A stretch of DNA of 64,000 nt from Bacteroidota bacterium (lineage in GTDB: Bacteria; Bacteroidota; Bacteroidia; Bacteroidales; WCHB1-69): assembly GCA_009786185.1 (NCBI GenBank), contig WQTS01000142.1:14523-78522 (forward strand), read 5' to 3'. The translations under genes and the position numbers were made by a program. The number at the start of each line of letters is the position of its first letter. The first letter of the stretch is position 1. The notes below the pieces were generated by a model. It was not told the DNA's origin. It saw only the letters and a list, made by a program, of their open reading frames with translations, and made no database searches. This document shows, in pieces, positions 6,779-51,022 of the stretch.

Positions 6779-6823
6779 TAATAAAAACAATACAATTTTT
6801 ATTCATCATTAAAAAAAATTATT

Positions 6824-8082: not shown

Positions 8083-8240
8083 GGGATTCCTCTCTGCGGT
8101 CGGAATGACACCGCTATTGGGAAATACTATCAAGCGGCGGCGGTACGGAACTTAAATTTTGTTCAGTATTTGCCGCCGCCGCTCTTTTTTCTGCGAACGC
8201 TCGTCCATTCCGAACGAAACGTAGCGTAGTGAGGAATCTC
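8083..8240. repeat. Nested palindromic REP-like element that includes a GC-rich terminator stem
   Basis: The outer arms are GGGATTCCTCTCTGCGGTCGGAATGACA (8083-8110) and GTCCATTCCGAACGAAACGTAGCGTAGTGAGGAATCTC (8203-8240), which are imperfect inverted copies. The inner stem AGCGGCGGCGG (8133-8143) / CCGCCGCCGCT (8173-8183) is followed by CTTTTTT. Confidence 0.5.
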
Positions 8241-8249
8241 GTTCTTCTT

Positions 8250-8927
8250 TTACCCAAACAGCACCACTGGAATCTCCAACGGACTCACCGATTTCCCATC
8301 TTTAAACACCCGCATGCTACCTCCGGAAATCTCATCAATAAGCGTTATTTTGCCGTTCACTCTGCCGAATTCAATCTTCATGTCGTATAACTCCGCGCCT
8401 TTTTTCGCTAATTCGTCATTGATAATTTTCGCAATTCGTTTTGTTAAATCTTTTAAGATTTCATACTCTTCTGCGGTTAAGATGCCGAGCATATCAAGCT
8501 GATCTTTTGTGATGGGCGGATCGCCACGCTCGTCGTCTTTTAAAGTGGTTTCTACCAAGAAATCCAAGTCTTGTCCGTTGGTGCAGTAATCGCCGAACCT
8601 TTTTAAGAAACTTCCTACTGCTTTAAGTCTGCAAATAACCTCAACGCCTTTGCCGAACATGGTAGCCGGTTTTACAATCATTTGCGCTTTGTCGACATTT
8701 GCCGATACTAAGTGAGTGGGAATGCCCGCTTCTTCTATTTTTTTGTAAAAGAAATCAGTAAGTCTTACACAAGACTTGCCGACTCCCTCAATCGTCAACG
8801 CTACTGTGTTTGCGCCTGGGTCGAATTTACCATCAGTACCGGTAACATCATCTTTAAACTGTAACAAATAATTGCCATCGCCATTATCGTACACATCTTT
8901 GGTTTTACCTTTATAAACCATTTTCAT
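8250..8927 (-). CDS. purC: Phosphoribosylaminoimidazole-succinocarboxamide (SAICAR) synthase
   Basis: YKGKTKDVY start, GIPTHL, and LYDMKIEFG with LIDEISGGSMR. Confidence 0.9.
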   Translation of the reverse strand: MKMVYKGKTKDVYDNGDGNYLLQFKDDVTGTDGKFDPGANTVALTIEGVGKSCVRLTDFFYKKIEEAGIPTHLVSANVDKAQMIVKPATMFGKGVEVICRLKAVGSFLKRFGDYCTNGQDLDFLVETTLKDDERGDPPITKDQLDMLGILTAEEYEILKDLTKRIAKIINDELAKKGAELYDMKIEFGRVNGKITLIDEISGGSMRVFKDGKSVSPLEIPVVLFG

Positions 8928-18573: not shown

Positions 18574-19017
18574 TTATAATAACTTGTTTTTCCAATAATT
18601 ATATTGAGTGTTGAATAAAACCAAGGCATTCTCCTCTTTTTGTTTCATCACCTGTTTATCCGTATTTTTCTTGTCTTTATATCCACAAAGATGCAAAATC
18701 CCATGTGCCATAACCCTTCGTAATTCTTCTTCGAAAGTGCAATTAAATCGATTGGCATTCTCTTTTACACGCTCAATGGAAATGCAAATATCACCATTTA
18801 AATATCCTTCTTCAGAATAGTCAAACGTAATAATATCTGTAAATGTATCATGATTTAGATATTGTTTGTTAAGCACTAAAAGTTGTTCATCACTATAAAA
18901 AACAATATTTATTTCTCCTATTTTTCTGCTTTCCTGCTTTGCTATTTCACCCAACCAATTTTTAATTGATCTTTTTTGTGATAAGTTGAATTTAGTTTCG
19001 GAAAAAAAGAGAATCAT
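18574..19017 (-). CDS. ybeY: rRNA maturation endoribonuclease YbeY
   Basis: HGILHLCGYKD zinc motif; about 140 aa. Confidence 0.9.
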   Translation of the reverse strand: MILFFSETKFNLSQKRSIKNWLGEIAKQESRKIGEINIVFYSDEQLLVLNKQYLNHDTFTDIITFDYSEEGYLNGDICISIERVKENANRFNCTFEEELRRVMAHGILHLCGYKDKKNTDKQVMKQKEENALVLFNTQYNYWKNKLL

Positions 19018-19040
19018 AAATTATTTTTTATGTGATTTTA

Positions 19041-19490
19041 TTAAGCATTTTCAGAAGCATACCACTCTGCATACGATTTTTCGGTTTCATACAATCGTAA
19101 GGAAAACAACTGTAAATCGGCAGGCAATATCTTTTTTATAATATTAGCCAACTCACAAATCATATTTTCGGTAGTAGGTTGAAAGGGAACAATAATTATA
19201 TTTTCATAATTGCTTTTTAATGCATCAAGTAGTACCGGATCTGAATCTTGATGAATCATTAGAGCATGGTCCCATACGGAAATAATGTCATCTTGGATTA
19301 GTTTTTTAAAATCACTAAAATCAATGAGCATTCCTTTTTTAGGAGAAGCCTCATCATTGCAAGGAGTGCCTTTAACCGTTACCTCTAACCTGTAGGTGTG
19401 CCCGTGAATATTCTTGCATTTTCCATGATAATTCAGCAATACATGAGCCATATCGAAACTGAAAACGCGCGTTAAACGTAAAATAGCCAT
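19041..19490 (-). CDS. queD: 6-carboxy-5,6,7,8-tetrahydropterin synthase
   Basis: FSFDMAHVL...CKNIHGHTYRLEVTVKG matches the PTPS/QueD pattern. Confidence 0.9.
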   Translation of the reverse strand: MAILRLTRVFSFDMAHVLLNYHGKCKNIHGHTYRLEVTVKGTPCNDEASPKKGMLIDFSDFKKLIQDDIISVWDHALMIHQDSDPVLLDALKSNYENIIIVPFQPTTENMICELANIIKKILPADLQLFSLRLYETEKSYAEWYASENA

Positions 19491-19551
19491 AGGTTCAATA
19501 TTTTCTGCAAAGAAACATCAATTTTTTAAACAAAGTCTTTAATAAATGTTA

Positions 19552-20106
19552 CTATATTGTATTTATTGATAACGCCACTTCATACAAATCATCACCTTGT
19601 ATTATTTTCAACGCATAATTATTTTTGTAGTAAAACTCTAACCGTTGTTCAAGTATCTTTAATCCGCTTTTGAATGGAACAATATTTGAGGAACTGTAAG
19701 CATGATTATTTTTGCAACAAAAGTTTAAAATAGGAAAATTTGTAGCATCAATCATAATATCTACCCATCCGTTGCCGTCATGCTTTGTATGCTTCATCGC
19801 ATTGTCAACAAAAGGCTCAAATAACAAAGGAATAACCGTATAACTTCCTGCTTGTCCCAAAATATTAAAATTTACAAAAATGCTGTTTTGATGTCTTAAA
19901 TTTTCCAATTCGGTATAATATTTATAAAATGCGAGTTCTTTTTCCAATTCAATCGTCCTTTTTTCAGCGTCTATTAGAAAATAATATAGAACGAATTTTA
20001 CTTTATTTAAAATCTGGCTATCACTGTTACAGACTAATGCTCTCGCATAAACATGCTCTAAAATATTAAAAAAATAATGAAAAGGAATTTTTTTCTCTAT
20101 TTTCAT
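19552..20106 (-). CDS. LytS/YehU-type histidine kinase core without a membrane sensor region
   Basis: FHYFFNIL is an H-box-like motif (PHFLFN type) at the extreme N-terminus, followed by an ATPase-like remainder (DNAMKHT). It is only 184 aa with no TM segments. Confidence 0.6.
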   Translation of the reverse strand: MKIEKKIPFHYFFNILEHVYARALVCNSDSQILNKVKFVLYYFLIDAEKRTIELEKELAFYKYYTELENLRHQNSIFVNFNILGQAGSYTVIPLLFEPFVDNAMKHTKHDGNGWVDIMIDATNFPILNFCCKNNHAYSSSNIVPFKSGLKILEQRLEFYYKNNYALKIIQGDDLYEVALSINTI

Positions 20107-20164
20107 TCATTCAAAACTTCATGCAAAATAAAAAAAATATTTTTGCAAAAGTGAATGATGTGAA

Positions 20165-20914
20165 ATGAAAAAATTCAGATATATTGTCATTGATGATGAA
20201 TATCCGTCACATTTGACAGTGCAACACCATTTCAGAGCCTATCTGAACTATACATGTATAGCTACTTTTATTAGTCCAAAAAGAGCGCTCTTATTCCTTC
20301 AAGAACATGAAATTGATCTCATTTTTTTGGATATTAAAATGCCGGAAATGGATGGTTTTCAATTCTTGGAAGCCTTAGAAAAAAATATTTTCGTAGTAAT
20401 TCTTACTGCCTATCCGGAAAAATATAGCCTTGATGCACATTGCCATATTGATAAAAACATGGTCTTTTTTTCCAATAAAGCACAATTTTTATACTATCTT
20501 CCAAAAATAATTGCTCGTTTTGAAAAAATGCATGCAGAGAAAGAAATAATAAATAGAATAAATCAATTATTTAATAATGAGATATATACATTTCCGAAAA
20601 AACTCAATAATAAACCCATATTACTTGCGGATATCTTATTTATCACCGTTATAAAACATGATATAGTCTTGAAAATGAAAGATGGAAAAGAGATTATCGA
20701 TCGCATAACGTTACGCGAACTGATGAGCTTTTTACCCTCTAATATTTTTTTACAGATTAAAAGAAATACGATTATTAATACCGTATGTGTTACAGCATTT
20801 ACAAATACTACTGTATGCCTTGAAGATCAACATTTTCGTATCTCAGTAAGGAGACAAAAAAAAGTCATTCAAACTTTAAAAAAACAAATGCAAGAATTGT
20901 ACGAAAATTACTGA
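20165..20914 (+). CDS. LytTR-family response regulator
   Basis: Receiver domain (IVIDDE...LIFLDIKMPEMDGFQFLE) plus a C-terminal LytTR-like DNA-binding domain. It is divergent from the kinase gene. Confidence 0.8.
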   Translation: MKKFRYIVIDDEYPSHLTVQHHFRAYLNYTCIATFISPKRALLFLQEHEIDLIFLDIKMPEMDGFQFLEALEKNIFVVILTAYPEKYSLDAHCHIDKNMVFFSNKAQFLYYLPKIIARFEKMHAEKEIINRINQLFNNEIYTFPKKLNNKPILLADILFITVIKHDIVLKMKDGKEIIDRITLRELMSFLPSNIFLQIKRNTIINTVCVTAFTNTTVCLEDQHFRISVRRQKKVIQTLKKQMQELYENY

Positions 20915-21672
20915 TCAAAACGATATAAAATAGGAATTTTTTCGTATCGAATATACGTATTATGGTTTAACCAATCTCCGGTATTGAAATAAATGGCGTT
21001 TTCAATAACAATTTCTAACGGTAAATGCCGATGTCCGAAAATAAAATAATCAATGTTTTGATTAACAAGATATTGATAGCAAAATTGCACGAGGCGCTCT
21101 TTTTCATTTCCTAAAAATTGCTCTTTGTATGCAGGTGTCATAGCTCTACTATTTTTAGAAAAAAAGTGTGCCATAGCAAAACCTGTTTTAGGTGGAATAA
21201 GTCCAAATAACCAACGATTTATCTTACAGTTTAAAAATGCTTTCAAGCACTTATAACCAAACTCACCTTTGCCTAAGCCATCACCATGTCCTAATAGAAA
21301 CTTTTTATCATTAATCACAAATTCTTGTTTCTTTTTGAATATATGAACTCCCAGATGCTCTTTTAAGTAGCTTTTTATCCACATATCGTGGTTTCCTGTA
21401 AAAAAATAGACTTCTACCCCATTGTTTCTTAGTTCTGCGATTTTATCCAAAAAAAACGTATAAAATATAGGTGGTTTTCCGTTATATTCAAACCAAAAAT
21501 CGAAGATATCACCTAAAAGGAACAAATGATTGGCATCTTTTTGGATATATTCCAACCAATTAACCACATATCTTTCGCGTTTTTTGCTTTCTTCTTGATT
21601 AGGAGCGCCAAAATGAAAGTCAGAGGCAAAATAGCATACCCCGGAAATGAAAATCGGCTGAGAAATTGGCAT
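20908..21672 (-). CDS. lpxH: UDP-2,3-diacylglucosamine hydrolase
   Basis: Metallophosphatase motifs: ASDFHFG, LGDIFDFWFEY, GNHD, GHGD, GHRH. Confidence 0.85.
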   Translation of the reverse strand: MPISQPIFISGVCYFASDFHFGAPNQEESKKRERYVVNWLEYIQKDANHLFLLGDIFDFWFEYNGKPPIFYTFFLDKIAELRNNGVEVYFFTGNHDMWIKSYLKEHLGVHIFKKKQEFVINDKKFLLGHGDGLGKGEFGYKCLKAFLNCKINRWLFGLIPPKTGFAMAHFFSKNSRAMTPAYKEQFLGNEKERLVQFCYQYLVNQNIDYFIFGHRHLPLEIVIENAIYFNTGDWLNHNTYIRYEKIPILYRFDQ

Positions 21673-35934: not shown

Positions 35935-37080
35935 TTACTTCCCCGATTTTCTTCTATTACAATCTTTGCACAACATTTGGCAATTTTCCTCTATGGTCTT
36001 GCCGCCTTCGTGCCAAGGCGTAATGTGGTCGGCCTCCATTTCTGATAGGTCAAAATGCTTTTCGCATTTAGTGCAAATTCCGTTTTGCCGCTCAAAGACT
36101 TTTTGTTTCGTACTATCTGTAAAAGCGCGTATGGAGAGATATTTTTCATCACGAGTAAGAATATAGGGGTAAATTCCGCTCTTTTTGGTAACATCGTCAT
36201 CGGCAATTAGTCTGATAGTTTCTTCTTCTATGGTGTTTGTGTCGTATATTTTATCTTTGTATTTGTTGTAGAGCGCGCCCCAATCCACGCCTTTCATAAA
36301 TTTTCTTTTGTTGGTAAAAGTGGTATTTACCCACGTAATTACATCTTGAAAATACCTCCACAATGCGCTTGCATTGGGGTCATGTTGATGCGATGCCATG
36401 TAATTCTCAATATTTCCTTTTGAAATCCAATCTATGGCAGTTTCCAAATAATCTTGACGAATGGAAGATCCGATTAAATAATCTTCGCCTATTCCTGAAG
36501 CGGGGCACCCTCTTTTGCTAAAATATCTTTTGGCATCGGAAACCCATGAGCCGGCATACACTGCATTCCGCAATTCCTGGTCGGTTAATTTTTCTCCTGC
36601 GATGTTGATGGTTTTGAACCATTCCAATTTTTCACTTTCGGTTCCGCTGCAAAGATAAACCATTAGTTTATAGCTTAATAACTGTTCTTTTTCGTCATTT
36701 TGCAGATTATGAAAATATCTGTTTTTAAAAGCAAAGTCGCCTTCCACAAACTGGCAAATGGAAATGGTACGTTGTTGGCCATCAATCACTTCGTAAACGG
36801 TGTCGTCATTGCGGGCGTGACCCGCAATTCCATTATTCAGAGGATTCTGACTTTCGTCAGAATGACGGCTATTCACCGCCCAATACATTACGTTCAATGG
36901 ATAATCTTTTGTAATAGTGTCAATCACAGCATCTCGCTGCTTGTCTTTATAGATAAATTCTCTTTGAAACGGTGGACGAATATCTAATTTGCCGCCATAA
37001 CCGACAACTCCGTTTTCATTATGGTCTTGATAATTATCCGTTAATTCTCTAACTGTAATTTCTTTAAGTTCGATTTTCAT
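35935..37080 (-). CDS. DUF262 (ParB-like nuclease/NTPase) - HNH endonuclease fusion protein
   Basis: RPPFQREFIY and IDGQQR (DUF262). The C-terminus CTKCEKHF...ADHITPWHEGGKTIEENCQMLCKDCNRRK is HNH. Its start overlaps the methyltransferase stop (ATGA, 37077-37080). Confidence 0.8.
   Translation of the reverse strand: MKIELKEITVRELTDNYQDHNENGVVGYGGKLDIRPPFQREFIYKDKQRDAVIDTITKDYPLNVMYWAVNSRHSDESQNPLNNGIAGHARNDDTVYEVIDGQQRTISICQFVEGDFAFKNRYFHNLQNDEKEQLLSYKLMVYLCSGTESEKLEWFKTINIAGEKLTDQELRNAVYAGSWVSDAKRYFSKRGCPASGIGEDYLIGSSIRQDYLETAIDWISKGNIENYMASHQHDPNASALWRYFQDVITWVNTTFTNKRKFMKGVDWGALYNKYKDKIYDTNTIEEETIRLIADDDVTKKSGIYPYILTRDEKYLSIRAFTDSTKQKVFERQNGICTKCEKHFDLSEMEADHITPWHEGGKTIEENCQMLCKDCNRRKSGK
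36804..36867. repeat. Compound palindromic element inserted in frame in the DUF262 domain
   Basis: Hairpin ATTGCGGG-CGTGA-CCCGCAAT (36808-36828), hairpin ATTCTGAC-TTTC-GTCAGAAT (36844-36863), and outer CGTCATT/AATGACG. Translated as RHSDESQNPLNNGIAGHARND just before YEVIDGQQR. Confidence 0.6.
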
Positions 37081-38111
37081 ATTTTTTTGTTTTTGATTAC
37101 TATTCGTGCGTATGTTGCTTTCCCGTTTACAACAAAACCAACGAAATTTTTATGTTGCTCATCAAGATAATACGGTTCAGCTTGTATAAAAGCATCGTCT
37201 TTTTCTCTTTTATCATTCGCAAGTCCAATTATTTCAAATTGGTCGGGATTGTATTTATCTAAAAATGTTATGGGTACACCTATAACTCCATCAAAATCCA
37301 TAGGAATATCTTTGGTTTTATCCACATTAATGGCATCATAATTATCGTATTTGGGATATTCTTCGGGAGTATATTTTTTGTAAAGTATCAAATCTTCGTG
37401 CCGTTCATTGTAATCCAAATTAGTAAACCAACGCACACCCTTAACGCGAATAAACTTTTTTCCTTGATTATCAATTCTATAACCGGCAGCATTCAAAGGA
37501 TAGTCATCAGGAACTCCAAACTCTCTATCGCCGCTGTGAATACTGGCTCCTAACCATAATTTATTCTCTTTAATCAATTTAAAAACCTCTTTATAAGTTA
37601 CGGCATTGACGTTTCCGATAATCAAGAACTTTTTATCGTACTCAACAAGTTGCGCCACATACTCTCTAAACAAAGAAAACGGCGGATTTGTTACTACAAT
37701 ATCGGCTTGTTTTAGCAATTCAATGGTCTCTTTACTGCGAAAATCACCATCGCCTTTTAAATGTTTAATGCCGATTTCGTTTGGGTCAGGAACATTATTT
37801 CCGGTTTTATCCCCATTATATTCCAAATAAATAGCTCTTTCCGAATCATTTTGGCTGAACAAATCCGCATTTTGATTTTTGTAGCAAGTAGTAATCAGTT
37901 TTTTGAGACCTAATTTTTCAAAATTGTATGAAAAATAGTGGAAGAAATTGCTTATGCGTGGGTCATCGCAATTGCAATACACTACTTTGTCTTTGAAGTG
38001 GGTTCTGTAATGTTTTAATTCTCGTTCAATGTCTGATAGTTGGGTGTAGAATTCGTCTTTTTTGGAGGTTTTTGCGTTGTGGAGGTTTTTGTTTAGGGAT
38101 TTTTGTGTCAT
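37077..38111 (-). CDS. N6-adenine DNA methyltransferase, EcoRI-methylase-like family
   Basis: DEFYTQ, VYCNCDD, IVVTNPPFS (NPPF catalytic motif), and GVPITFLDKYNPDQFEIIG. The likely start is the ATG at 38111 (MTQKSLNK); the track ORF extends to 38222. Confidence 0.8.
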   Translation of the reverse strand: MTQKSLNKNLHNAKTSKKDEFYTQLSDIERELKHYRTHFKDKVVYCNCDDPRISNFFHYFSYNFEKLGLKKLITTCYKNQNADLFSQNDSERAIYLEYNGDKTGNNVPDPNEIGIKHLKGDGDFRSKETIELLKQADIVVTNPPFSLFREYVAQLVEYDKKFLIIGNVNAVTYKEVFKLIKENKLWLGASIHSGDREFGVPDDYPLNAAGYRIDNQGKKFIRVKGVRWFTNLDYNERHEDLILYKKYTPEEYPKYDNYDAINVDKTKDIPMDFDGVIGVPITFLDKYNPDQFEIIGLANDKREKDDAFIQAEPYYLDEQHKNFVGFVVNGKATYARIVIKNKKI

Positions 38112-38399
38112 AAAATTAGTGTTTTTCTGCACTAACTTTATTCGGAACAAAAAGAAAGCGTGAGATTCTTTGTTCTCCTCAGTGGGCCTAGGAACCCGAT
38201 ACAGAAACAAGAGAAAGCTCACGCAGTCGCGTAAGCATTTACTAACTTATTCTTCTGTATCTTTTGAAATTTCCTAGGTTTCTGAGGACAGAATAATAGC
38301 TAATGCTATGTTTTTATTTTAATTTATTGGTTTATATCATAGGGATTATTTATTGGTTTCTTATTTTGGTTTAATTTATGTGATTTCGTTGTTGAACAA

Positions 38400-39053
38400 T
38401 TATTTATCCGAGTTAGATATAGTATTTTTTAATCCATATTTGTAAATATCCCTACCAAATTGAGTTGGATAAATATCAGCAGACCAAACACTCATTTTAA
38501 TTACTAAACCAGAAGACTGCAAGTTCCCTTCTGCAGTTACCCTATCTTCATCATAATTTTGAACTTCTTTTCCTTTTTTTGTATCGATTCGAGGAATGAT
38601 TACCAAATTTTTTAAATCAACTCTTTCAAGACAATCTGTTAGTTGAAGAAAATGTTCCCAATCAAAATCTCCATTCACATAAGAAGCAAATAGATTACAA
38701 TAAATACCTATTTTCTGTGTGTTTTTCAAATCATCAATGTACTCAATTAAAGTTTCTGTAATTTTTATTCTATAGTTTTTATCATTTTGGATTTTATTTT
38801 TGAAATCATCTAGCTTTTGTTCGTCTATGTTTTGATTTTCAAAATCTTGTAAGAATCGTATAAATTTTTTAATAAAAATTTTGTCTCGCAAATTTATAAA
38901 TCCCTTATACGTTGAAATAATTTTTCCAATATGTGGTATTCCTTCAAGAATTCCAGAATCTATTATTTCAACAAAGTCAACTTCATTAAGCTTTATTTGT
39001 TCCGTTGATTTTCTGTTTGTCAGTGAAAGAGCAAAGTTGTCAATATTTTTCAT
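38400..39053 (-). CDS. Hypothetical protein (gene 4 of the AT-rich ParA-led operon)
   Basis: 217-aa ORF in the same strand and operon context. I recognise no motif. Confidence 0.55.
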   Translation of the reverse strand: MKNIDNFALSLTNRKSTEQIKLNEVDFVEIIDSGILEGIPHIGKIISTYKGFINLRDKIFIKKFIRFLQDFENQNIDEQKLDDFKNKIQNDKNYRIKITETLIEYIDDLKNTQKIGIYCNLFASYVNGDFDWEHFLQLTDCLERVDLKNLVIIPRIDTKKGKEVQNYDEDRVTAEGNLQSSGLVIKMSVWSADIYPTQFGRDIYKYGLKNTISNSDK

Positions 39054-39086
39054 ATTTAATATATCTATTCAATTTTCTATTTGAGC

Positions 39087-39797
39087 CTATTCCATTAATT
39101 TTTTTCTCATAGTTTTAGGAATGCAGTCAGTAATTAATTTTAATTCGACAGGTTGAAATTTGATATTATTATGAAATTTGAATAATAAAAAAATTATTTT
39201 GTAAATAGTAATATTTATTCCATATAGAACTCGTGAGTAATCTATTGTTTGCCGCAAGTCTTGTAAACTTTTTGCCAATCCCATAAAATGGATTCCTTTG
39301 GCATGAACATAATTATTAAGTTTTGTATATTCATTAAAAATATAATCATTAAAATCTTTATTTAGTTTATCTTCTAAAAACTTAGGATGTGTAATAAGGT
39401 AGTTTTTTAAATTAATTATAGGAGTATATTCATTTTTGCCATTATTCAAATGAAAAAACTCTATTTCATGATTAAAATAAAAAATATGATTATAAAAATT
39501 TTCAATTACCTTTCTATAAGTCATCATGCTTGTATTATGATAACCAAATATAGCATGTGTAATAAGTAAAAGTAGATCAGATCGAATTTCTTGTAGAAAG
39601 ACAGTCCTATTAGGGATTTTTTCTACTTGAGTTACTTTTATTTGAATTAATGAAAGCGCGTAAAGTAATGAATGAAACTTTTTAAACTCAGGTAAAGCGC
39701 TAACATCTTTTGATAAAGTATCATTGATTTTTAAAATTTCATCCTTGAAGAGAAGGAAATCTTGTTCCTTTTTCTGTGATTCAAAGATAGAACTCAT
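39087..39797 (-). CDS. Hypothetical protein (gene 3 of the AT-rich ParA-led operon)
   Basis: 236-aa ORF, helical by composition. Its start codon overlaps the upstream gene's stop at 39797. Confidence 0.55.
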   Translation of the reverse strand: MSSIFESQKKEQDFLLFKDEILKINDTLSKDVSALPEFKKFHSLLYALSLIQIKVTQVEKIPNRTVFLQEIRSDLLLLITHAIFGYHNTSMMTYRKVIENFYNHIFYFNHEIEFFHLNNGKNEYTPIINLKNYLITHPKFLEDKLNKDFNDYIFNEYTKLNNYVHAKGIHFMGLAKSLQDLRQTIDYSRVLYGINITIYKIIFLLFKFHNNIKFQPVELKLITDCIPKTMRKKLME

Positions 39798-40204
39798 TAT
39801 AAATTAATGTTTTTTATCGCCTCTTCCCATTCATTGAAGAAGTTGTTTTTTGTACTTTTCTTTTTGTTTTTCTTTAAGTTATTAATAATAGAGTTTAGTT
39901 CTTTTATCTTGTTTTTATTAAATTTTGAAACAGCAACAATAACTCTACCAATAATGTCTTCTTTTTTCTTCTTTTCAGGAGATGGTATTGATACTCCTAT
40001 TTTTTCAGCAAATCTTGAAATATCTAAATTTTTTTCAAAAATTTTTTCATTCAAAAATAAAAATGGCAAAGAGCCTATTAATTCCTCTAATTCCTCTTTG
40101 TTGCTATTGTTTTTAGATGGAATATTTTGTCTTCTTTTAAAAATTTGTTCAATTTCTTCAATAATAGAAATCAACTCTTGTCTTGTATATTTATCTATAT
40201 TCAT
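39797..40204 (-). CDS. Hypothetical highly charged small protein (gene 2 of the operon)
   Basis: 135 aa, Lys/Glu-rich, starting 3 nt after the ParA-like stop. The position is that of a ParB/ParG-type adaptor, but I see no recognisable similarity. Confidence 0.5.
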   Translation of the reverse strand: MNIDKYTRQELISIIEEIEQIFKRRQNIPSKNNSNKEELEELIGSLPFLFLNEKIFEKNLDISRFAEKIGVSIPSPEKKKKEDIIGRVIVAVSKFNKNKIKELNSIINNLKKNKKKSTKNNFFNEWEEAIKNINL

Positions 40205-40206
40205 AA

Positions 40207-41157
40207 TTATATTGTATTTAAAATTTCAGTAGTCACATTTTTATACTCTGTCGCATATCTTTCTGTACTTGCATTTCGATAGAAATCCTCTAAAGAACTT
40301 ATATTATTTCCAATACTTCTAGCGACCATAACAGAATGACTTAGTTTACTTGTATATAATTTTCTTTTGCCACTTTGGGCAATACTTTCAATAATTTCGT
40401 TTGGCAAAGTAGATGTATTGTTTACCATGGTAAAAACAATGCCTAATGGTTGTAGATTATGACCATACGTATCTTCGTATTCTTTTAAACCTCTTTCAAG
40501 CATTGGCAATCCCAAAGAAGATAAATAGTCTGGTTTAATTGGTATTAAGTAGTGGGATGAAGCTAAATATGCACTAATGGTTAATACTGATAATGTAGGG
40601 GGGCAGTCATATAGTATAAAATCATATTCACTGCAATATGAGTTGATAAAATTTTTCAAATAATTCTCTGCACCTCTTTTGCTTGTTTCAAAATTAATCA
40701 ATTTAAGAGAAGAGGGCAATAAATCTAATTTAGAACCATTTTCAAAATTTTTAATATTTATAATATAATCACTTATGTTTATTGTTAGAGACTTTTTCTG
40801 TGATACTCCTGCTAAATCAACATCTTCTTCTTTATCTGGCATCAATATGTCATATACTGTTTTGTTGACTTTAAAATGATTTAATATATCTTTTTGATTA
40901 ACAAGATATTGTGTTGCATTAAATTGCGGATCAATATCAACTATTAAAACCTTCTTTTTCTCAAATTTAGATAAAACATATGCAAAATTAGTTGACAATG
41001 TTGTCTTGCCAACTCCTCCTTTCATGTTTACGATCATTATTCGCTTTTGTCCTTCCATAAAATTAAGGGGCACAAAACACTCTATCCCTAAAAGAGTATT
41101 TATTTTTACCTGATTTTCAATATTTTCCCGATTTTTCGACTTAAAACAAAGTATCAT
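40207..41157 (-). CDS. ParA/MinD/Soj-type deviant Walker-A ATPase
   Basis: IMIVNMKGGVGKTTLSTNFAYVL, VLIVDIDPQ, and ILYDCPPTLSVLT. The true start may be the ATG at 41058 (MEGQKRIMIV). Confidence 0.8.
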   Translation of the reverse strand: MILCFKSKNRENIENQVKINTLLGIECFVPLNFMEGQKRIMIVNMKGGVGKTTLSTNFAYVLSKFEKKKVLIVDIDPQFNATQYLVNQKDILNHFKVNKTVYDILMPDKEEDVDLAGVSQKKSLTINISDYIINIKNFENGSKLDLLPSSLKLINFETSKRGAENYLKNFINSYCSEYDFILYDCPPTLSVLTISAYLASSHYLIPIKPDYLSSLGLPMLERGLKEYEDTYGHNLQPLGIVFTMVNNTSTLPNEIIESIAQSGKRKLYTSKLSHSVMVARSIGNNISSLEDFYRNASTERYATEYKNVTTEILNTI

Positions 41158-41379: not shown

Positions 41380-41427
41380 TAACAGACTTACAACACACTT
41401 ACATAACAGACTTACAACACACTTACA
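41380..41427. repeat. Perfect tandem duplication of a 24-bp unit (candidate transposase-binding sites near the prophage left end)
   Basis: TAACAGACTTACAACACACTTACA x2 (41380-41403 and 41404-41427). Upstream there is also TAAAAACCG(C/T)T(A/T)AAA at 41250 and 41351, and four TTTTGC(G/A) motifs at 41243-41305. Confidence 0.8.
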
Positions 41428-41641: not shown

Positions 41642-42298
41642 CTATGACTCTTGTCTAATTACACCCAAAACAATAGCTATAGCATATATTTTACTTTTAT
41701 GCAATGGGAAAGGATCATATTTTGGATTATCAGAAACAATAGTTAAAGTATCTTCTGTTTCGCCCTTTTTTATTCGCTTAACCAATGCGCCCTGTTCGGT
41801 ATCCAATACATATACTTTATTCCACTGGAAAAATGTATCCAATGGCAGTTTTTTACACGCAACAATATCACCTGAATTATACTTGGGGTACATAGAAGAT
41901 CCTTTGACGGATATTAGAAATTCGGCTTCTTTAAACACTGGAATAACAAAACGCTCACATTCATGTTCTAAAACTTGTGCACCCCCAGTTCCATAGCCTG
42001 CCATTGCGCTAATGGGAATTAGCGGAATTCCGTCATTTCCATTGGTAGGTACCATATTTTTTGCGGTAATATCATTCCGCAGCATATTGCCGGTACCAGT
42101 AAGTAACCAATCGGATGAAATTTCTCCAAAAACAGATAAAATTTCAGCTATTTGAGTGCCTCCAAATTCGCTTTCTAACGACTTTCCTTTTATATTTGCA
42201 TAAGAAATTCCTGTTTTTTCACAAAACAACTGCTTTGTAATTCCCAAATATTCAATATATTGTAATATTCTCTCTTTGATGGGTGAAATTTTATTCAT
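41642..42298 (-). CDS. Phage repressor (XRE-type HTH plus S24 LexA-like peptidase domain)
   Basis: N-terminal HTH (ILQYIEYLGITKQLFCEKTGISYANI). C-terminus VKGSSMYP...GDIV...VKRI provides the Ser/Lys dyad. Confidence 0.8.
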   Translation of the reverse strand: MNKISPIKERILQYIEYLGITKQLFCEKTGISYANIKGKSLESEFGGTQIAEILSVFGEISSDWLLTGTGNMLRNDITAKNMVPTNGNDGIPLIPISAMAGYGTGGAQVLEHECERFVIPVFKEAEFLISVKGSSMYPKYNSGDIVACKKLPLDTFFQWNKVYVLDTEQGALVKRIKKGETEDTLTIVSDNPKYDPFPLHKSKIYAIAIVLGVIRQES

Positions 42299-42379
42299 AA
42301 ATTTATTTAATGTATGAAATTTTATCTATTTTTGTCGCCGAATTAACACGGTTAAAACCGCCACAAAAATAAAAAAATA
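42299..42379. promoter_or_regulatory. Divergent early promoter/operator region between the repressor and Ner-like genes
   Basis: The assignment is positional only, by analogy with the Mu c/ner switch. I identified no operator sequences. Confidence 0.4.
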
Positions 42380-42568
42380 ATGAATAAGATTAGCAAAGTT
42401 AAAATGAAGGTAGGCACGCGGAAACAAATTGCCGATGCCTTTAATGTTTCTGTAACTACAGTTAGCCTCGCTGCAAGTGGTATTACGCAAAGCGAATTAG
42501 CCGATAAAATTCGTAAGGCGTGTGTAAACGCTGGCGGCGATCCGATTTATGAGAGTATTAACCAGTAA
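42380..42568 (+). CDS. Small HTH protein, Ner/Cro-like
   Basis: 62 aa. RKQIADAFNVSVTTVSLAASG resembles an HTH. It is divergent from the repressor. Confidence 0.5.
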   Translation: MNKISKVKMKVGTRKQIADAFNVSVTTVSLAASGITQSELADKIRKACVNAGGDPIYESINQ

Positions 42569-42973
42569 AATATATGTATTATGATTAAAGTAGAAATTAA
42601 AATGCTTTTGAATGATCTTACTCCAAGCATAGAAAAAAAAATCTTCTTTTTAGGGATATTAATCCTTAAAAAGAAATGCTTCGGACATAAAACCGATAGG
42701 GGTTCAGTTGAAATTAATACAAGTTGCTAACTCATTCTCTGTGATTGTTTTAAAAGTTCCGATAAATAAGAATCAATGGATTTCATGTTAATATCACCCG
42801 GTTTTTCTAATTTTTCAACTCGTTTAGCGAGTACCGCAATCATAGCGACAATTTCATCATTTGAATACATACGTGTAAATTTTAAAGTTTGGCAACGCGA
42901 AATTACACAAATTTTCCCGAACGGTTTTTCTCCGGTTCGATTCCGGAGCGGGAGCTAAAAAAGAGTAATAATT

Positions 42974-45040
42974 ATGGTACTGTTCAACTATAACGGAAAT
43001 TTGGCTTTAGAGAGTAGGTGGCTATGGGATAATGGTGTTATTAGCAGGAATAATTACGATATTCGTGTTAATAGAAAGTCTATCACCGTTCTACAACGTT
43101 CCGCTCCCGGCTGTCCCGCCATTATTAGTTACGAATCTCTGCCATATAATATAAAGGATAAAATTAGCACAAAGTTGCAAGAGCTGGGCGAGTTATCGGC
43201 TATTGGTACCAATGCGAATGTACCCATTGAAAAGCAACCCCAACCTTGTTTCTTTGAAAGGTATATAAAACCGGATCCTGCCGCGTTGGAATTTTACGCA
43301 AAATATCCACCGGAAAAAGCGTTGGAATATCACACCAATGCAATTATACTTAACGCATTTCGCGACTTGCTGAGTGAGCGCACGAGTGTTCGCGCTGCAA
43401 AAGGCTCAAGAAGCGTTAAAAGAAGCGGTGTGTTTGCTTCCGTTTTGGGCGATCTTAAATTATTGGACAGAAAAAAGTATCCACACACGCTACCCCTTAG
43501 TGATCGGAACCTAAGGCCCAAGTATCAGGAATATATAAAGGATGGCTACAAATCATTAATACACAAGAATACGGATAATAACTATGCCCGAATAGTAACG
43601 GCTGACATTGAACGGATTTTAATGAGTTTAGCCGTTGCAAGCAATAATCCTTATGCGGAATGGGTTCATGGGCAATATTGCCAATTCTTGTCCGGCGAAA
43701 TTGATGTTGTGGATGTAAAGACAGGCGTACTGTTTAACAGGGAGGAGTTTTGCAATGATAAGGGTGAACCCAGCTACATTAGCGAATCTACCGTATGGAA
43801 TTATCTGAACAATCCCGCGAACAAAGCTGTTATTGATAGTATTAGATTGGGGTACCATCAGTTTGGAGCCTTGGCGCGCCCACACTATCACAGAGAAAAC
43901 GCCCGGTACAGTTTGAGTAAGGTTAGCCTTGATGACAGGGATTTGCCGCGCAAAATGCACGATGGCAACCGCGTAAAAGCATACTATGCCTATGATGTAC
44001 ACAGTGGTGTTCTTATTGGCGCCTGCTATTCAAGAAAAAAAGATACAGATTTGTTTGTAGGCTGTTTGCGCAATATGTTCCGCAATCTTGATGAAATGAA
44101 TTTAGGGCTTCCGCTTGAAATGGAAGTAGAAAACCACCTTGTACGCCAGTTTGAAGATGACTTGCTCAAAGCCGGCAACTTGTTCCCCTTCGTTCGTTGG
44201 TGTGCACCTACCAACTCGCAGGAAAAGCACGCAGAGCAATTTAACAGGCAAAAGAAATACGGATACGAAAAACGCTATCAGGATGGAATAGGCCGCTTTT
44301 ATGCCAAACTTGACGTTAACAGAACCAATGGCGAGCGGGTTTATAACGAAGTAACCGATCGCTACGAAATTAAAACAAAAACATACAGCTACGAGCAGTT
44401 AGTTGCCGACGATCTACTTACGGTAAAAGAATATAACGAGGGTTTGCACCGCGACCAAAAGAAGTATCCGGGCAAAAGCCGCATGCAGGTATTTCTTGAA
44501 AACCTTAACAAAAGTTTGGTGCCAATAAATCGTCCGTTACTACTGCGTTATATCGGGAATTGCACTACCACAAGCGTACAGCGCAACCAATATGTACAGG
44601 TTCAATATGCAGATTACCAATTATCATCACCGGAAGTATTACGCAGGCTAAAACCCGGTAATTATAACGTAAATGCGTACTGGTTATCTAACGCCAAAGG
44701 TGCAATCAGTGAGGTTTATCTCTACCAGGGTGATGAATTTTTATGCAAAGCAGATCAGATAGAAAAGTTTACCACTGCAAAAGCTGAATGGCAGGATGCC
44801 GACAGTACAGCAATGTCGGGCCAGGCACAATATATTACATCATTTGACAAAACAGTAAAGAACGGCAGAGAATCGCTCGCCAAGACGCGAATTTTGCCCA
44901 AAACAAACTACGAAGAAATCATACCGGTAATAGAAGAAGTGGGACCGGTAGCCGAATCTCATTTTGCTTTTGATTTGGACAGGTTAATGGATAAATACCA
45001 AAGTGAAGACTACAAAGAGAGGTGCATTGAAGCAGTTTAA
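42974..45040 (+). CDS. Mu-like DDE transposase (rve/RNase H-fold core)
   Basis: 688 aa. The candidate acidic triad regions are SLDDRDL, AYDVHSG and EMEVENH. It sits directly upstream of a MuB-like ATPase. Family assignment is from context and architecture. Confidence 0.7.
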   Translation: MVLFNYNGNLALESRWLWDNGVISRNNYDIRVNRKSITVLQRSAPGCPAIISYESLPYNIKDKISTKLQELGELSAIGTNANVPIEKQPQPCFFERYIKPDPAALEFYAKYPPEKALEYHTNAIILNAFRDLLSERTSVRAAKGSRSVKRSGVFASVLGDLKLLDRKKYPHTLPLSDRNLRPKYQEYIKDGYKSLIHKNTDNNYARIVTADIERILMSLAVASNNPYAEWVHGQYCQFLSGEIDVVDVKTGVLFNREEFCNDKGEPSYISESTVWNYLNNPANKAVIDSIRLGYHQFGALARPHYHRENARYSLSKVSLDDRDLPRKMHDGNRVKAYYAYDVHSGVLIGACYSRKKDTDLFVGCLRNMFRNLDEMNLGLPLEMEVENHLVRQFEDDLLKAGNLFPFVRWCAPTNSQEKHAEQFNRQKKYGYEKRYQDGIGRFYAKLDVNRTNGERVYNEVTDRYEIKTKTYSYEQLVADDLLTVKEYNEGLHRDQKKYPGKSRMQVFLENLNKSLVPINRPLLLRYIGNCTTTSVQRNQYVQVQYADYQLSSPEVLRRLKPGNYNVNAYWLSNAKGAISEVYLYQGDEFLCKADQIEKFTTAKAEWQDADSTAMSGQAQYITSFDKTVKNGRESLAKTRILPKTNYEEIIPVIEEVGPVAESHFAFDLDRLMDKYQSEDYKERCIEAV

Positions 45041-45073
45041 AATATGATTAAATAACAATTAAAACACCAAAAA

Positions 45074-45955
45074 ATGAATTTAAACAAGAACTTAAAAGAA
45101 AAAATTGTAGCGGCGATGATAGAGCGCCGCAGAAACTTTGAAGGCAGTGATGCTAAATTTGCAACTACGTTAGGCATTAGTTCCTCACAGTACAGCCGTA
45201 TTACTAATGGCGAACTGGATAGGGTGATAAGTGATCCCAACTGGATAAGCATTGCCCGGAAACTGGATGTAACGCTTAATAATCTCCCGGAGTGGAAAAC
45301 TGCACGGACACCGGTATATGAATTTGTAACCGGTCAATTGGCTTTTTGCCAAGAAAACGCCGCGAGCCGTATGCTGTGCGATGTAGCGGATATTGGCAAA
45401 ACCTATACTGCAAAGTGCTATGTGAAAGCAAATAAAAACGCTGTTTATATAGACTGCAGCCAGGTAAAGAGCAAACAGAAATTGATTAGAAATATTGCGA
45501 AAGAGTTTGGGGTTGGACATACCGGAACGTATGCCGATGTGTATGCGGATTTGGTGTTTTATCTGCGTTCACTGCCCCAGCCTCTCGTAATACTTGACGA
45601 AGCGGGCGATCTTGACTATGCTGCTTTTTTGGAGCTAAAGGCATTATGGAACGCAACGGAGCGCTGCTGCGGTTGGTACATGATGGGCGCCGATGGATTG
45701 AGAGAAAAGATACGCCGCAGCATAGAGTTTAAAAAAGTAGGTTACGCTGAGTTATTTAGCCGCTATGGCAGCCGTTACCAAAAAGCAAGCCCGGACAGCG
45801 AGCGTGATATGCAGGATTTTAAAACAGTGCACGCTGCCCTGATTATCAAAGCCAATGTTGGGAATGAAGTGGATATACAGAGTTTGATTGCTCGATCTGA
45901 TTTTTCACTACGTAGAATTTACGATGAAGTAAACAAAATAAGCGCAAAGGCATGA
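45074..45955 (+). CDS. MuB-like transposition ATPase (N-terminal HTH plus AAA domain)
   Basis: HTH (FATTLGISSSQYSRITNG), Walker A-like DVADIGKTYTA, and Walker B LVILDEAGD. Confidence 0.7.
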   Translation: MNLNKNLKEKIVAAMIERRRNFEGSDAKFATTLGISSSQYSRITNGELDRVISDPNWISIARKLDVTLNNLPEWKTARTPVYEFVTGQLAFCQENAASRMLCDVADIGKTYTAKCYVKANKNAVYIDCSQVKSKQKLIRNIAKEFGVGHTGTYADVYADLVFYLRSLPQPLVILDEAGDLDYAAFLELKALWNATERCCGWYMMGADGLREKIRRSIEFKKVGYAELFSRYGSRYQKASPDSERDMQDFKTVHAALIIKANVGNEVDIQSLIARSDFSLRRIYDEVNKISAKA

Positions 45956-46572
45956 AACGAGCATTGTCGGTTAGAGATATAATGACTAAAAAATATGAGA
46001 CTATTCCGTTTACCGGGCAGTGGTTGGAGGCGTTTGGTATGCCGGAGCGTACAGGCGTGTGGATTATTTGGGGTAACAGCGGAAATGGCAAGAGTACTTT
46101 TGCTTTGCAACTATGTACGGAACTGTGCAAGCATGGCAAAGTACTCTACAACTCGCTTGAGGAGGGCAGCTGCTTAACATTCCGAAAAAGACTCGAATTA
46201 GTTGCCGGTGATATGGATGGTAAACGCTTCAATGTAGTAAGTGAGTCGGTGGATGAACTGTCGAAAAGGCTATTGCGCCAGCGTAGCGCCGATTTTGTAG
46301 TGATTGACAGTTTCCAATACAGCGGTTTAAGTTATCCTGCATACAGGCAATTCAAAGACAAGCACCCCAATAAACTACTCATATTCATAAGTCATGCTGA
46401 AGGGAGCCGGCCGGCCGGCAGGAGTGCAAAAAGTGTGTTATATGATGCCTCGCAGAAAATTTGGATTGAAGGCTTTAAAGCAATTTCAAACGGCCGCTCA
46501 ATAGGTGCAAATGGTGGTACTTATACTATTTGGGAAGATAGTGCAATGGTGTTTCATGGGTGTAAATCTTAA
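45952..46572 (+). CDS. P-loop NTPase (RecA/DnaB-C-terminal-like fold)
   Basis: IWGNSGNGKST (Walker A) and FVVIDSFQ (Walker B). It overlaps the MuB-like stop by 4 nt. Confidence 0.5.
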   Translation: MKRALSVRDIMTKKYETIPFTGQWLEAFGMPERTGVWIIWGNSGNGKSTFALQLCTELCKHGKVLYNSLEEGSCLTFRKRLELVAGDMDGKRFNVVSESVDELSKRLLRQRSADFVVIDSFQYSGLSYPAYRQFKDKHPNKLLIFISHAEGSRPAGRSAKSVLYDASQKIWIEGFKAISNGRSIGANGGTYTIWEDSAMVFHGCKS

Positions 46573-46583
46573 AAATTAGAATT

Positions 46584-47264
46584 ATGAAACTAAAAAACGA
46601 AAAAGGACAATTTATAAAAGCAGACTGGACACAGGAGGACATGAATATTCTTGTGGAACTATATCCTAATACATTAACCTCAGAAATAGCTAATATATTG
46701 GGCGTAGGGCTTTACCGTGTAAGAAATAAGGCGCATAATTTAGGTTTGAAGAAAAGCGCGGCATTTAAGAGCATGACCGGTAAAATGTCATCAAATAATC
46801 CTAAAACTATTGCAAGCAGATTTAAGAAAGGTAATATTCCCGGAAACAAAGGTAAAAAATATGTTGAATACTTGAGCGCAGAAGCGATTGAGAGATGTAA
46901 AGTTTCGCAATATAAAAAAGGGAATTTGCCTCACAATACAAAAGAAATAGGCTATGAAAGAATAGATAAGGAAGGGTATATTCTTGTTAAAACAGAATTG
47001 CGCGGCAAACTAAAATTGAAACATAGAGAAGTTTGGAAGCAACATTATGGAAATATTCCCAAAGGGCACAATGTGCAATTCAAGGATGGCAACCGCCAAA
47101 ACTGTAACATTGAGAACTTATACATAATACCTCGAAAAGAGCAGGTTGTACAAAACTCTATTCTAAATCTACCTCCGGAAGTACGAACTGCCTATAGAAT
47201 GATTGGAAATATAAAAAAAGAAATTAATAAACAAACGAAAGGAGCAAAAAATGAAACAAATTAG
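46584..47264 (+). CDS. HNH homing-type endonuclease
   Basis: GYILVK...HREVWKQHYGNIPKGHNVQFKDGNRQNCNIENL (HNH_3-like). Confidence 0.6.
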   Translation: MKLKNEKGQFIKADWTQEDMNILVELYPNTLTSEIANILGVGLYRVRNKAHNLGLKKSAAFKSMTGKMSSNNPKTIASRFKKGNIPGNKGKKYVEYLSAEAIERCKVSQYKKGNLPHNTKEIGYERIDKEGYILVKTELRGKLKLKHREVWKQHYGNIPKGHNVQFKDGNRQNCNIENLYIIPRKEQVVQNSILNLPPEVRTAYRMIGNIKKEINKQTKGAKNETN

Positions 47265-49936: not shown

Positions 49937-50044
49937 GATGCTAAAAATACAAAACAAAGCCAAAAGCCGTGCCACTTGGCAAAAAATAACAAACTCAAAA
50001 GGTGCTGGTAGGGAAACCGAAGGCTCCAATTAGATAAGCAAAGT

Positions 50045-51022
50045 ATGAAAAGGATAAACAACATTTATGACAAAGTATGCGAAATGGATAATCTGTATTT
50101 AGCATATCAAAAAGCGCGTAAAGGCAAAACCAATACTTATGGTGTCCGGCTCTTTGAGCGTGATTTGAATAATAATATGACGCAAATACATTCGGAATTG
50201 ATTTCAGGGCAATACAAAACATCTGAGTACAGCGTGTTCATGATACATGACCCAAAAGAGCGTGTTGTTTACCGCCTTCCCTTCCGGGACAGGATCGTTC
50301 ACCATGCTATTATGAATATTATTGAAGATACGTGGATAAAAATATTTATCTCAAACACATACTCATGTATAAAAGGTCGTGGCATACATGGTGCTTTAAA
50401 GCACTTGAAACGCGATTTAAAAAATGTTTCAACAACTAAATATTGTTTAAAGTTTGATATTAGAAAGTTTTATCCAAGCGTAAATCACGACATATTAAAA
50501 ACCATTATCAGGAAAAAGATAAAAGACGTAAAACTTTTATCGCTTCTTGATGAAATTATTGATTCCGCTCCGGGAGTTCCGATCGGCAATTATCTTTCAC
50601 AGTTTTTTGCTAATTTGTACCTGTCTTATTTTGACCATTGGCTAAAAGAAGAAAAGCGCGTGAAATATTACTATCGCTATGCGGATGATATTGTGATATT
50701 AGGGCACGATAAAGCCTATTTGCACGGGCTTCTTGTAGAAATCAATCATTACCTTGTAAACAACTTAAATCTATATATAAAGGATAACTACCAGGTATTT
50801 CCGGTAGAAGCTCGCGGCATTGATTTTGTGGGCTATGTATTTTATCATTCTCATATTCTAATGAGAAAAACAATTAAAAAGAATTTATGTAGAAAAGCAG
50901 CTGCTCTTAACAAAAAACGTATTCCCATGGATGAATATAAACATCGAATAGCACCACACCTCGGATGGGCTACACATTGCAATTCAAAACATCTTTTAAA
51001 AACCATTATACCACATGAATAA
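50045..51022 (+). CDS. DGR-type reverse transcriptase
   Basis: RT motifs include PIGNYLSQFFANLYL (the I/LGxxxSQ signature of DGR RTs) and YRYADDIVILG (YxDD). 325 aa with no maturase or endonuclease domains. Confidence 0.9.
   Translation: MKRINNIYDKVCEMDNLYLAYQKARKGKTNTYGVRLFERDLNNNMTQIHSELISGQYKTSEYSVFMIHDPKERVVYRLPFRDRIVHHAIMNIIEDTWIKIFISNTYSCIKGRGIHGALKHLKRDLKNVSTTKYCLKFDIRKFYPSVNHDILKTIIRKKIKDVKLLSLLDEIIDSAPGVPIGNYLSQFFANLYLSYFDHWLKEEKRVKYYYRYADDIVILGHDKAYLHGLLVEINHYLVNNLNLYIKDNYQVFPVEARGIDFVGYVFYHSHILMRKTIKKNLCRKAAALNKKRIPMDEYKHRIAPHLGWATHCNSKHLLKTIIPHE

Follow-up and report, generated by a model that had tools for sequence, protein, structure and literature searches.

What does a ParA-type ATPase gene do in an AT-rich block wedged between a restriction–modification (R-M) pair and a prophage-like region, and which of its neighbours belong with it? 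The question is raised by a 64,000-nucleotide stretch of a Bacteroidota bacterium (assembly GCA_009786185.1, contig WQTS01000142.1, positions 14,523 to 78,522), which we call the window, and by the four genes at positions 38400-41157 within it. The original prediction took the four genes for one operon in a defence-island context, with a stranded partition cassette of a plasmid or integrative conjugative element as the alternative. We find that the conserved unit is three genes, not four: the ATPase gene, a small charged partner and an all-helical protein (genes 1 to 3, referred to here as the trio), which together form a rare co-inherited module that crosses phyla. We tentatively read the trio, with a confidence just short of even, as an ATPase-gated conflict module acting in anti-phage or anti-mobile-element defence or in addiction, a function suggested by its genomic context.

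The case for a three-gene unit is carried by linkage. The 236-residue product of gene 3 is rare: a search of 5.8 billion proteins returned only 18 relatives, and a scan of one genome per species placed the close family in 5 of 185,579 species, all of them Bacteroidota. In a profile search of 1.84 billion representatives, 384 clusters belonged to the family at E ≤ 1e-3, with lengths almost always of 230–260 residues. In loci L001-L004 and L009-L013, homologues of the ParA and of the 135-residue partner directly precede gene 3, with unchanged order and with ORFs that abut or overlap; ten Bacteroidota loci in all show the linkage. The trio order is kept in 15 of 16 metagenome loci, the sixteenth (L031) being a 1.2-kb contig without upstream flank, and it is also intact at the widely sampled P0195 locus. 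All five remote members inspected (P0055, P0183, P0174 from Neobacillus rhizosphaerae, P0114 and one from Acetoanaerobium noterae) have the trio as well, with a ParA of about 275 residues, a middle gene of 158–198 residues and a helical protein of 242–295 residues. Identities to the window proteins fall jointly with distance, from 67 to 33% for the ParA, from 58 to 22% for the partner and from 46 to 23% for the third protein. The trio spans Bacteroidota, Bacillota and an organism with 60% GC, as a conserved operon encoding a defence system would be expected to do. The original prediction had named conserved linkage of the four genes as a check. Such linkage is found for three of them in every locus with enough flank, about 20 loci besides the window, and fails for the fourth.

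That fourth gene encodes a 217-residue protein with 15 homologues at 49–67% identity, including proteins of Elizabethkingia anophelis, Chryseobacterium, Paludibacter propionicigenes and Pontibacter harenae. In E. anophelis, P. propionicigenes and P. harenae the homologue is a lone gene flanked by long intergenic spacers, with no ParA trio nearby, and none of the other trio loci contains a homologue. One of them, L029, has an R-M pair directly after the trio, as the window does further downstream, with a 273-nt spacer where the window has the 217-residue gene. The AlphaFold2 model of the protein is of low confidence (predicted local distance difference test score, pLDDT, 62), with no structural match in the PDB, and the protein has no match in any profile library searched. 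Because only 33 nt separate the gene from gene 3, leaving no room for a terminator, it is probably co-transcribed with the trio here, and this proximity is what favours the view that all four genes form one functional system. We nevertheless rejected a four-gene unit, since the gene is unlinked to the trio everywhere else, and we regard a single four-gene system as extremely improbable: the 217-residue gene is missing from all other trio loci, stands alone elsewhere and has no counterpart at its position in L029. As judged from these comparisons, it is an independent passenger stacked behind the cassette and outside the conserved unit. A 26-nt tandem repeat of 2.6 copies lies at 38318-38387, between the passenger gene and the methyltransferase gene of the R-M pair, and may be a junction left by insertion of the passenger.

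The block as a whole is a compositionally foreign insert, in line with the earlier suggestion of horizontal acquisition. Its four open reading frames (ORFs) are present on the minus strand at exactly the coordinates first reported, and the tight packing described for them is borne out: the first two lie 2 nt apart (40205-40206), the second and third share 1 nt (39797), and the last follows after 33 nt (39054-39086). The GC fraction of 38400-41157 is 0.263, compared with a mean of 0.373 (standard deviation 0.036) for sliding windows of the same length over the 64 kb, which agrees with the by-eye judgement that the block is more AT-rich than its flanks. The lowest sliding-window value, 0.259, is found at 38251, on the block itself, which is the GC minimum of the window at this length, and 0.8% of windows are equally low. 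The products had been described as rich in Lys, Asn and Ile; Lys, Asn, Ile, Phe and Tyr together indeed account for 0.41–0.51 of the residues in the three unrecognised proteins versus 0.31 in FtsA. The GC fraction then rises stepwise, from 0.26 in the trio to 0.27 in the 217-residue gene, 0.34 in the methyltransferase, 0.39 in the endonuclease and 0.47 in SSB, and the island appears to have been pieced together from separate acquisitions.

Gene 1 was the one product recognised at the outset, as a deviant Walker A ATPase of the ParA/MinD kind, and this identification holds. Its translation contains MKGGVGKTT (K46 and K51 in the numbering of the 316-residue ORF), DIDPQ and DCPP, and it scores above threshold with the Pfam families AAA_31 (132.1 bits against a cut-off of 27; E = 2.8e-38) and CbiA (69.8 bits against 25.4; E = 2.7e-19), which places it among the deviant Walker A (SIMIBI) ParA/MinD ATPases. 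The closest solved relatives are ParA and the Soj proteins of Thermus and Helicobacter (1e-19 to 5e-21), and a PHROG ParA-like family matches at 4e-49. The curated NCBIfam cut-offs for partition proteins are not reached (ParA_partition, 70.7 of 180 bits; PrgP, 66 of 400; RepA, 62.5 of 348). The ATPase motifs are intact in all ParA homologues of the trio, which are 50–67% identical among Bacteroidota trios and 33–39% identical in trios of other phyla. Homologues begin with M-x-x-QKRITIVNMKGG, and because these N-termini align with M34 of the ORF, the true start is most likely at 41058, giving a protein of 283 residues; 41059-41157 is then probably a 5′ untranslated region or leader, or a promoter. 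On the basis of these matches, we classify gene 1 as a small ParA/Soj-type, type Ib-like ATPase without an N-terminal helix-turn-helix (HTH) domain.

The remaining products match no curated family in the profile libraries, as the original prediction had found them unrecognisable. The 135-residue partner, rich in Lys, Asn and Ile, lies between the ParA gene and the 236-residue gene in every trio. It is small, highly charged and of low complexity, with an internal PEKKKKED patch. Its conserved features are the motifs LIGSLPFLLLNE..F.KN.DI..FAEK and PEKKKKEDIIGR, a C-terminal NNFF.(D/E)WE.AI and an N-terminal Lys, and these recur in the Neobacillus, Acetoanaerobium and GC-rich versions. The middle proteins of distant trios retain LIG.LP, F..N.DI..FAE, a (K/R)KKR patch followed by E.IG, and a C-terminal NF(F/V)..W. 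Searches of Pfam, NCBIfam and PDB sequences gave nothing above noise for the partner, nor any signature of ParB, ribbon-helix-helix (RHH) or HTH proteins, and the profile of the partner family gives noise only against PDB sequences. The partner does match phrog_12497, a family of unknown function, at 1.3e-10; a tblastn search of 50,697 phage records returned nothing. Known partners of ParA proteins stimulate the ATPase through a basic N-terminal residue, and by analogy the N-terminal lysine of this protein might play the same role.

The third protein yields a confident model (pLDDT 87.2; predicted TM score, pTM, 0.84) that is all-helical, with about 12 helices. A structural search for a known effector fold, which the original prediction had proposed for the unrecognised products, gave nothing significant in the PDB for either the 236- or the 217-residue model; for the 236-residue protein there was no Foldseek match at E < 0.1 in the PDB or BFVD. 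The family profile gives only noise against PDB sequences, and NCBIfam assigns none of 108 family members to a curated family. Conservation is more telling. Every one of 108 diverse relatives has R95 and H165, and a further set of residues is nearly invariant: H110 and E113 (107 each), E99 (106), Y157 (103), G85 (102) and S73 (98); E70 is kept in 92. This pattern suggests an enzyme, and the invariant Arg and His, with the near-invariant Glu, His and Tyr residues, are the reason that we take gene 3 to be the probable output enzyme or effector.

The nearest named family is DUF5677 (PF18928), which matches colinearly in 20 of the 108 relatives (E ≤ 0.01) over a core of approximately residues 60–180. 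Scores in these remote relatives are 17.9–23.1 bits, below the 27.1-bit gathering cut-off for membership, and the window protein itself has no DUF5677 match at all. The family is best described, from these profile scores, as a distant, uncurated relative of DUF5677. A prior study characterized DUF5677 as an accessory-genome family enriched beside serine recombinases in defence contexts (PMC12632615, bioRxiv). We also considered and rejected assignment to the HEPN ribonucleases: the Foldseek matches are weak (the best, 1ufb, has a probability of 0.75 and a TM score of 0.56 on the target and is not significant) and there is no Rx4-6H motif. Closest to R95 is H104, which sits at Rx8H and is conserved in 61 of the 108 relatives, and the invariant H165 is 70 residues away. 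One relative, P0174 (WP_248737338.1; L022 7001-7768; 255 residues), is labelled in UniRef as a 'KAP NTPase domain-containing protein'; it has no P-loop, and its only Pfam match is a weak one to DUF5677. The label is probably an artefact of automatic annotation, although it could reflect similarity to the helical part of KAP NTPases.

The places where the trio is found are informative about what it is for. In L001, L018-21/L038, L034, L035 and L041 it is a bare three-gene insertion between housekeeping genes, and there is therefore no replicon at these sites for it to partition. Other settings are integrative or rich in insertion sequences (IS): L004 has a tyrosine integrase and an HTH_17 protein, L023 carries IS66 and IS605, L002 a DDE transposase with many HTH genes, and L028 a 1836-residue methylase/helicase beside the trio; L013 and L011, by reading of their ORFs, lie on integrative/mobilisable elements. 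Known or candidate defence genes adjoin the trio repeatedly. Three loci have type II R-M systems beside it: the window; L029, whose pair is related to that of the window (43% identity for the EcoRI-type methyltransferase and 35% for the DUF262-HNH protein); and L036, with two complete systems, MjaI-type and EcoRI-type. In L011, PDC-S01 (1e-185) abuts the trio, ThsB_TIR lies beside it in the P0055 locus, and putAbiC is present in L015-17.

Two features of these neighbourhoods deserve mention in their own right. EcoRI-family methyltransferases follow the trio in three loci with different endonuclease partners (L029 3297-4851; L036 2904-7227). The partner is a DUF262-HNH protein in L029, as in the window, and a genuine EcoRI endonuclease at the L036 locus, which suggests endonuclease swapping around a conserved methylase; L036 also encodes an N6_N4 methylase–SNase fusion with the MjaI-type endonuclease. 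In Mucilaginibacter phenanthrenivorans (L010 4463-7846), a WYL-WCX-Tpt1/KptA fusion and an RtcB RNA ligase are encoded divergently just upstream of the trio, an association of RNA-repair genes that may or may not be meaningful.

Records of plasmids and phages, the expected carriers of a partition cassette, almost entirely lack the family. With the window protein, P0183, P0174, P0055 and P0114 as tblastn queries against PLSDB and/or INPHARED, and the close family against IMG/VR, we found no relative in 50,697 phage records (INPHARED) or 2.9 million viral contigs (IMG/VR). PLSDB gave a single match, on a 2.6-Mb record that is labelled a plasmid and is chromosome-sized. No segregating replicon of the kind that a type I ParABS system serves (plasmid, phage-plasmid or oriC-proximal region) was found. 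These results led us to reject a plasmid or phage partition cassette, and they weaken the stranded-partition alternative of the original prediction.

The strongest evidence on the other side comes from short tandem arrays near some of the loci. We scanned for these by an upstream repeat search in seven loci and by TRF over 20–22 loci. In the window, a perfect 24-nt x2 array lies 320–370 nt upstream of the ParA start and approximately 215 nt beyond the prophage repressor gene; its 12-mer has 5 matches, four of which make up the array, against 0.55 expected. This array may be a binding array of the cassette, an island boundary or the left end of the prophage-like element. L036 and L001 each have about eleven 21-nt units 300–600 nt upstream, and L018 has three units just downstream. 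Tandem-repeat density within 700 nt of the trio (5 in 27 kb) is roughly 5 times that of the remaining sequence of these loci (9 in 253 kb; rough Poisson P ~0.003). No array was found in L002, L010, L011, L016, L022, L023, L025, L029, L034 or L035, and these searches do not support a conserved centromere upstream of ParA, as arrays turned up in four loci and are unrelated in sequence. In L036 and L001 long arrays flank the islands that contain the trio. The repeats of L036 comprise a left array at 111-399 (21 nt × 11, GAAACATTCTTGGTTAACGGG, containing GTTAAC) and repeats of 20–187 nt at 7246-7838, right after the last R-M gene; that of L001 is a 21/42-nt array upstream at 8119-8351. The L036 and L001 arrays may be binding arrays or island-boundary repeats.

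Taken together, we favour the conflict-module reading because the trio moves as a unit and inserts where there is no replicon to partition, because it is absent from phage records and its lone plasmid-collection match is on a chromosome-sized record, and because defence genes repeatedly adjoin it and an intact ATPase is coupled to an enzyme-like protein. In the mechanism that we propose, the ParA would form an ATP-sandwich dimer on DNA, as expected from its family. The partner, which co-evolves with the ParA and has a basic N-terminus and a KKKK patch, would probably stimulate the ATPase and bridge it to gene 3, whose conserved residues would provide the catalytic output. ParA and partner would together hold or license this effector, by analogy with Septu, PARIS and Menshen. 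An ATPase that gates an effector is the logic suggested for such ATPase-plus-effector systems (PMC12065111). The cassette would be self-contained and horizontally mobile and would segregate no replicon. A bolder version, possible though doubtful, is that the trio represents the first system of immunity or conflict to rely on a ParA/MinD-class ATPase, with a helical effector of unclassified fold and an Arg/His/Glu centre. In that case, the DNA-bound ParA dimer and its partner could serve as the sensor or gate; they might, for instance, keep the effector on the nucleoid and let it go upon the arrival of foreign DNA or disruption of the nucleoid. Prokaryotic immunity would then gain both an ATPase class and an effector family, with approximately 380 sequence clusters over several phyla.

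Several observations weigh against a role in conflict. Of about 21 distinct loci, 6 have defence neighbours within a few kb, a suggestive but qualitative tally with no background rate, and about one-third of loci have no nearby defence gene or mobile genetic element (MGE) gene. Against PADLOC-DB v2.0.0, the ParA gives just a 42-residue P-loop match to PDC-M28B (1.5e-5); the other three proteins of the block have no meaningful match there, and the scattered single matches among the 108 relatives of the gene 3 product look like noise. The role assigned to gene 3 is drawn from residue conservation by itself. HEPN proteins make up 7 of its top 50 PDB Foldseek matches, none of them significant (E > 0.1; best E = 0.76), and a study that put one true DUF5677 gene to the test in E. 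faecalis did not list it with the genes reported as protective against six phages (PMC12632615). Finally, the arrays fit a centromere-like site better than they fit a defence model; they occur in 4 of 22 loci (window, L001, L018 and L036), with unrelated sequences and varying positions.

It is mainly because of these arrays that a second explanation stays open, namely partition-like maintenance of integrated elements or islands, in which the ParA and a centromere-binding adaptor acting on the arrays would keep an excised circle and gene 3 would be accessory. The resemblance to Soj and other type Ib ParAs, the par-locus order of a ParA gene followed by a small charged partner, the 21–24-nt periodicity and 5-fold density of arrays within 700 nt of the trio in L036, L001, L018 and the window, and the location of several loci on integrative or mobilisable elements (the L004 integrase, L028, L013 and L011) all fit this explanation. 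We nonetheless consider it unlikely, given that most loci have no array, that arrays are unrelated and variable in position, and that many loci have no integrase or other MGE gene and so nothing that could excise them. The family's absence from phage records and viral contigs points the same way, as do its single plasmid-collection match, which is to a 2.6-Mb record, and a partner that shows no ParB, RHH or HTH signature; a third gene with invariant Arg and His is foreign to par loci.

A three-component toxin–antitoxin or addiction cassette that stabilises its own island, with gene 3 as the toxin, ParA and partner neutralising or regulating it and no dedicated anti-phage role, would account for the sporadic distribution, low GC, bare insertions, island and integrative/mobilisable-element locations and tight translational coupling, and one locus does lie beside the WYL-Tpt1 fusion and RtcB RNA-repair genes. 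However, no known toxin–antitoxin family matches. Computational evidence does not distinguish addiction from defence, and to our knowledge ParA-class ATPases are not known as antitoxins; we judge this narrower explanation to be quite improbable. Very improbable, in our view, is positioning of a cellular cargo in the manner of McdA-McdB, with the small disordered charged protein as adaptor and gene 3 as the cargo or a cargo-bound factor. Genes for ParA/MinD ATPases usually have those for the adaptor and cargo as neighbours, and the small, highly charged, low-complexity partner would suit an adaptor, but the trio is patchy across phyla (close family in 5 of 185,579 species), foreign in composition and variable in neighbourhood, with no conserved cargo operon.

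The neighbours of the block in the window are as originally described, an EcoRI-type methyltransferase, a GmrSD_N plus HNH protein and a prophage-like region, and the setting is rich in defence genes. PADLOC recognised the R-M pair next door and fitted no system model to the block proteins. The features discussed here are collected in Table 1.

Table 1. Positions in the window of the block genes, the adjoining R-M pair and the tandem repeat
Feature	Position	Strand	Basis
ParA-type gene, trio gene 1	40207..41058 (longest ORF to 41157)	minus	Pfam, homologue N-termini
135-residue partner, trio gene 2	39797..40204	minus	linkage and shared motifs
236-residue helical protein, trio gene 3	39087..39797	minus	AlphaFold2 model, conservation
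217-residue passenger gene	38400..39053	minus	stand-alone homologues
Type II R-M pair	35935..38111	minus	Pfam and PADLOC
Tandem repeat, 24 nt x2 (= four TGTAAGT[G/C]TGTT)	41380..41427	no strand	repeat search

The R-M pair forms a separate transcription unit approximately 288 nt downstream of the passenger gene. Its EcoRI-family methyltransferase (37077-38111; ORF to 38222; 502 bits), which probably starts at 38111 rather than at 38222 by the reasoning applied to the ParA start, overlaps the gene for a GmrSD_N/DUF262 plus HNH endonuclease (35935-37080; PADLOC REase_II, 2e-133). FtsA, FtsQ and SSB lie downstream of the pair, ending at 35833. On the other side of the block, the prophage-like region begins at 41642 (41642-47264 is described here) with an S24 repressor on the minus strand, a divergent 62-residue gene, a 688-residue protein, and HTH_3 plus AAA_22, AAA_25 and HNH_3 proteins. 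The 688-residue protein has no Pfam domain and is 36–39% identical to proteins of human-gut phage contigs. The gene order of the region resembles that of a transposable (Mu-like) phage, orientation flips at about 54 kb, and the phage records with a related transposase are unannotated fragments. We found no convincing inverted copy of the 12-mer or long inverted repeat in 41150-64000, and the right end of the prophage probably lies outside the window or is degenerate. That the prophage adjoins the trio is probably a coincidence.

Also inside the prophage-like region, a reverse-transcriptase (RT) ORF of 325 residues (49965-51022, plus strand; RVT_1, 1.9e-17) begins exactly where an Rfam RT-17 RNA motif ends (45.8 bits against a gathering threshold of 40.4); together they look like a retron-like or other RT–non-coding-RNA unit carried by the phage. 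Two further stretches of low GC (0.26–0.31) are unrelated to the cassette: 5001-7000 encodes a 4Fe-4S dicluster-domain protein beside a protein sorted by the type IX secretion system, and 19001-21000 a histidine-kinase fragment and a LytTR response regulator. A sorting domain of the type IX secretion system within the window and the taxonomy of all close homologues point to Bacteroidota as the source.

Our analysis defines the unit as three genes, corrects the ParA start and names candidate catalytic residues. The established work of ParA/MinD ATPases is to position DNA and protein cargo, and we know of no role for them in immunity or genetic conflict. The ParA gene of the trio passes from phylum to phylum in fixed association with two uncharacterised partners, and it is repeatedly found beside R-M, TIR, Abi and candidate defence genes. 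Should the trio serve in defence or addiction, it would bring to that repertoire an ATPase class new to it and a new effector family of unassigned fold, and would provide a functional context for DUF5677-like proteins. If it is a partition-like device, it would reveal a means by which small islands that have no recognisable replicon are kept.

How, then, does the trio compare with systems that are already known? The PADLOC v2 models, Pfam, NCBIfam and the literature that we searched describe neither this cassette nor any ParA-based defence system, which agrees with the original prediction on this point. Gene 1 resembles the type Ib ParA/Soj proteins (Soj-Spo0J, ParF-ParG and delta-omega of pSM19035) in its KGGVGKT, DIDPQ and DCPP motifs, in its length of about 280 residues and in lacking an N-terminal HTH domain. 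As in type Ib par loci, a small basic partner gene follows directly, and the best PDB and NCBIfam matches are ParA, Soj and ParA_partition. In contrast to those loci, it scores far below the partition cut-offs, its partner shows no ParB, RHH or HTH signature in profile searches, a third, enzyme-like gene is always present, and the trio shows no conserved centromere and is not found on phages, with one plasmid-collection match on a 2.6-Mb record. McdA-McdB offers a similar pairing of a ParA with a small, highly charged adaptor-like protein, whereas the trio has no conserved cargo locus and is mobile, patchy and foreign in composition. For gene 3, the likeness to HEPN RNases (HepT, Csm6 and Abi-type HEPN) lies in an all-helical bundle with an invariant Arg and His; unlike in HEPN proteins, these are 70 residues apart, with no Rx4-6H motif and no significant structural match. 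The likeness to DUF5677 lies in the sub-threshold colinear profile matches of remote relatives, which the window protein does not share. The trio is unlike Septu, PARIS, Gabija and Menshen, which have ABC/OLD-type ATPases and recognisable nucleases, in that its ATPase is of the ParA/MinD class, its effector is of an unclassified fold and no PADLOC model covers it. What it has in common with Septu (PtuAB), PARIS (AriAB), Gabija and Menshen (NsnABC) is a compact operon of an NTPase and a putative effector, distributed sporadically and found in islands beside R-M and other defence genes.

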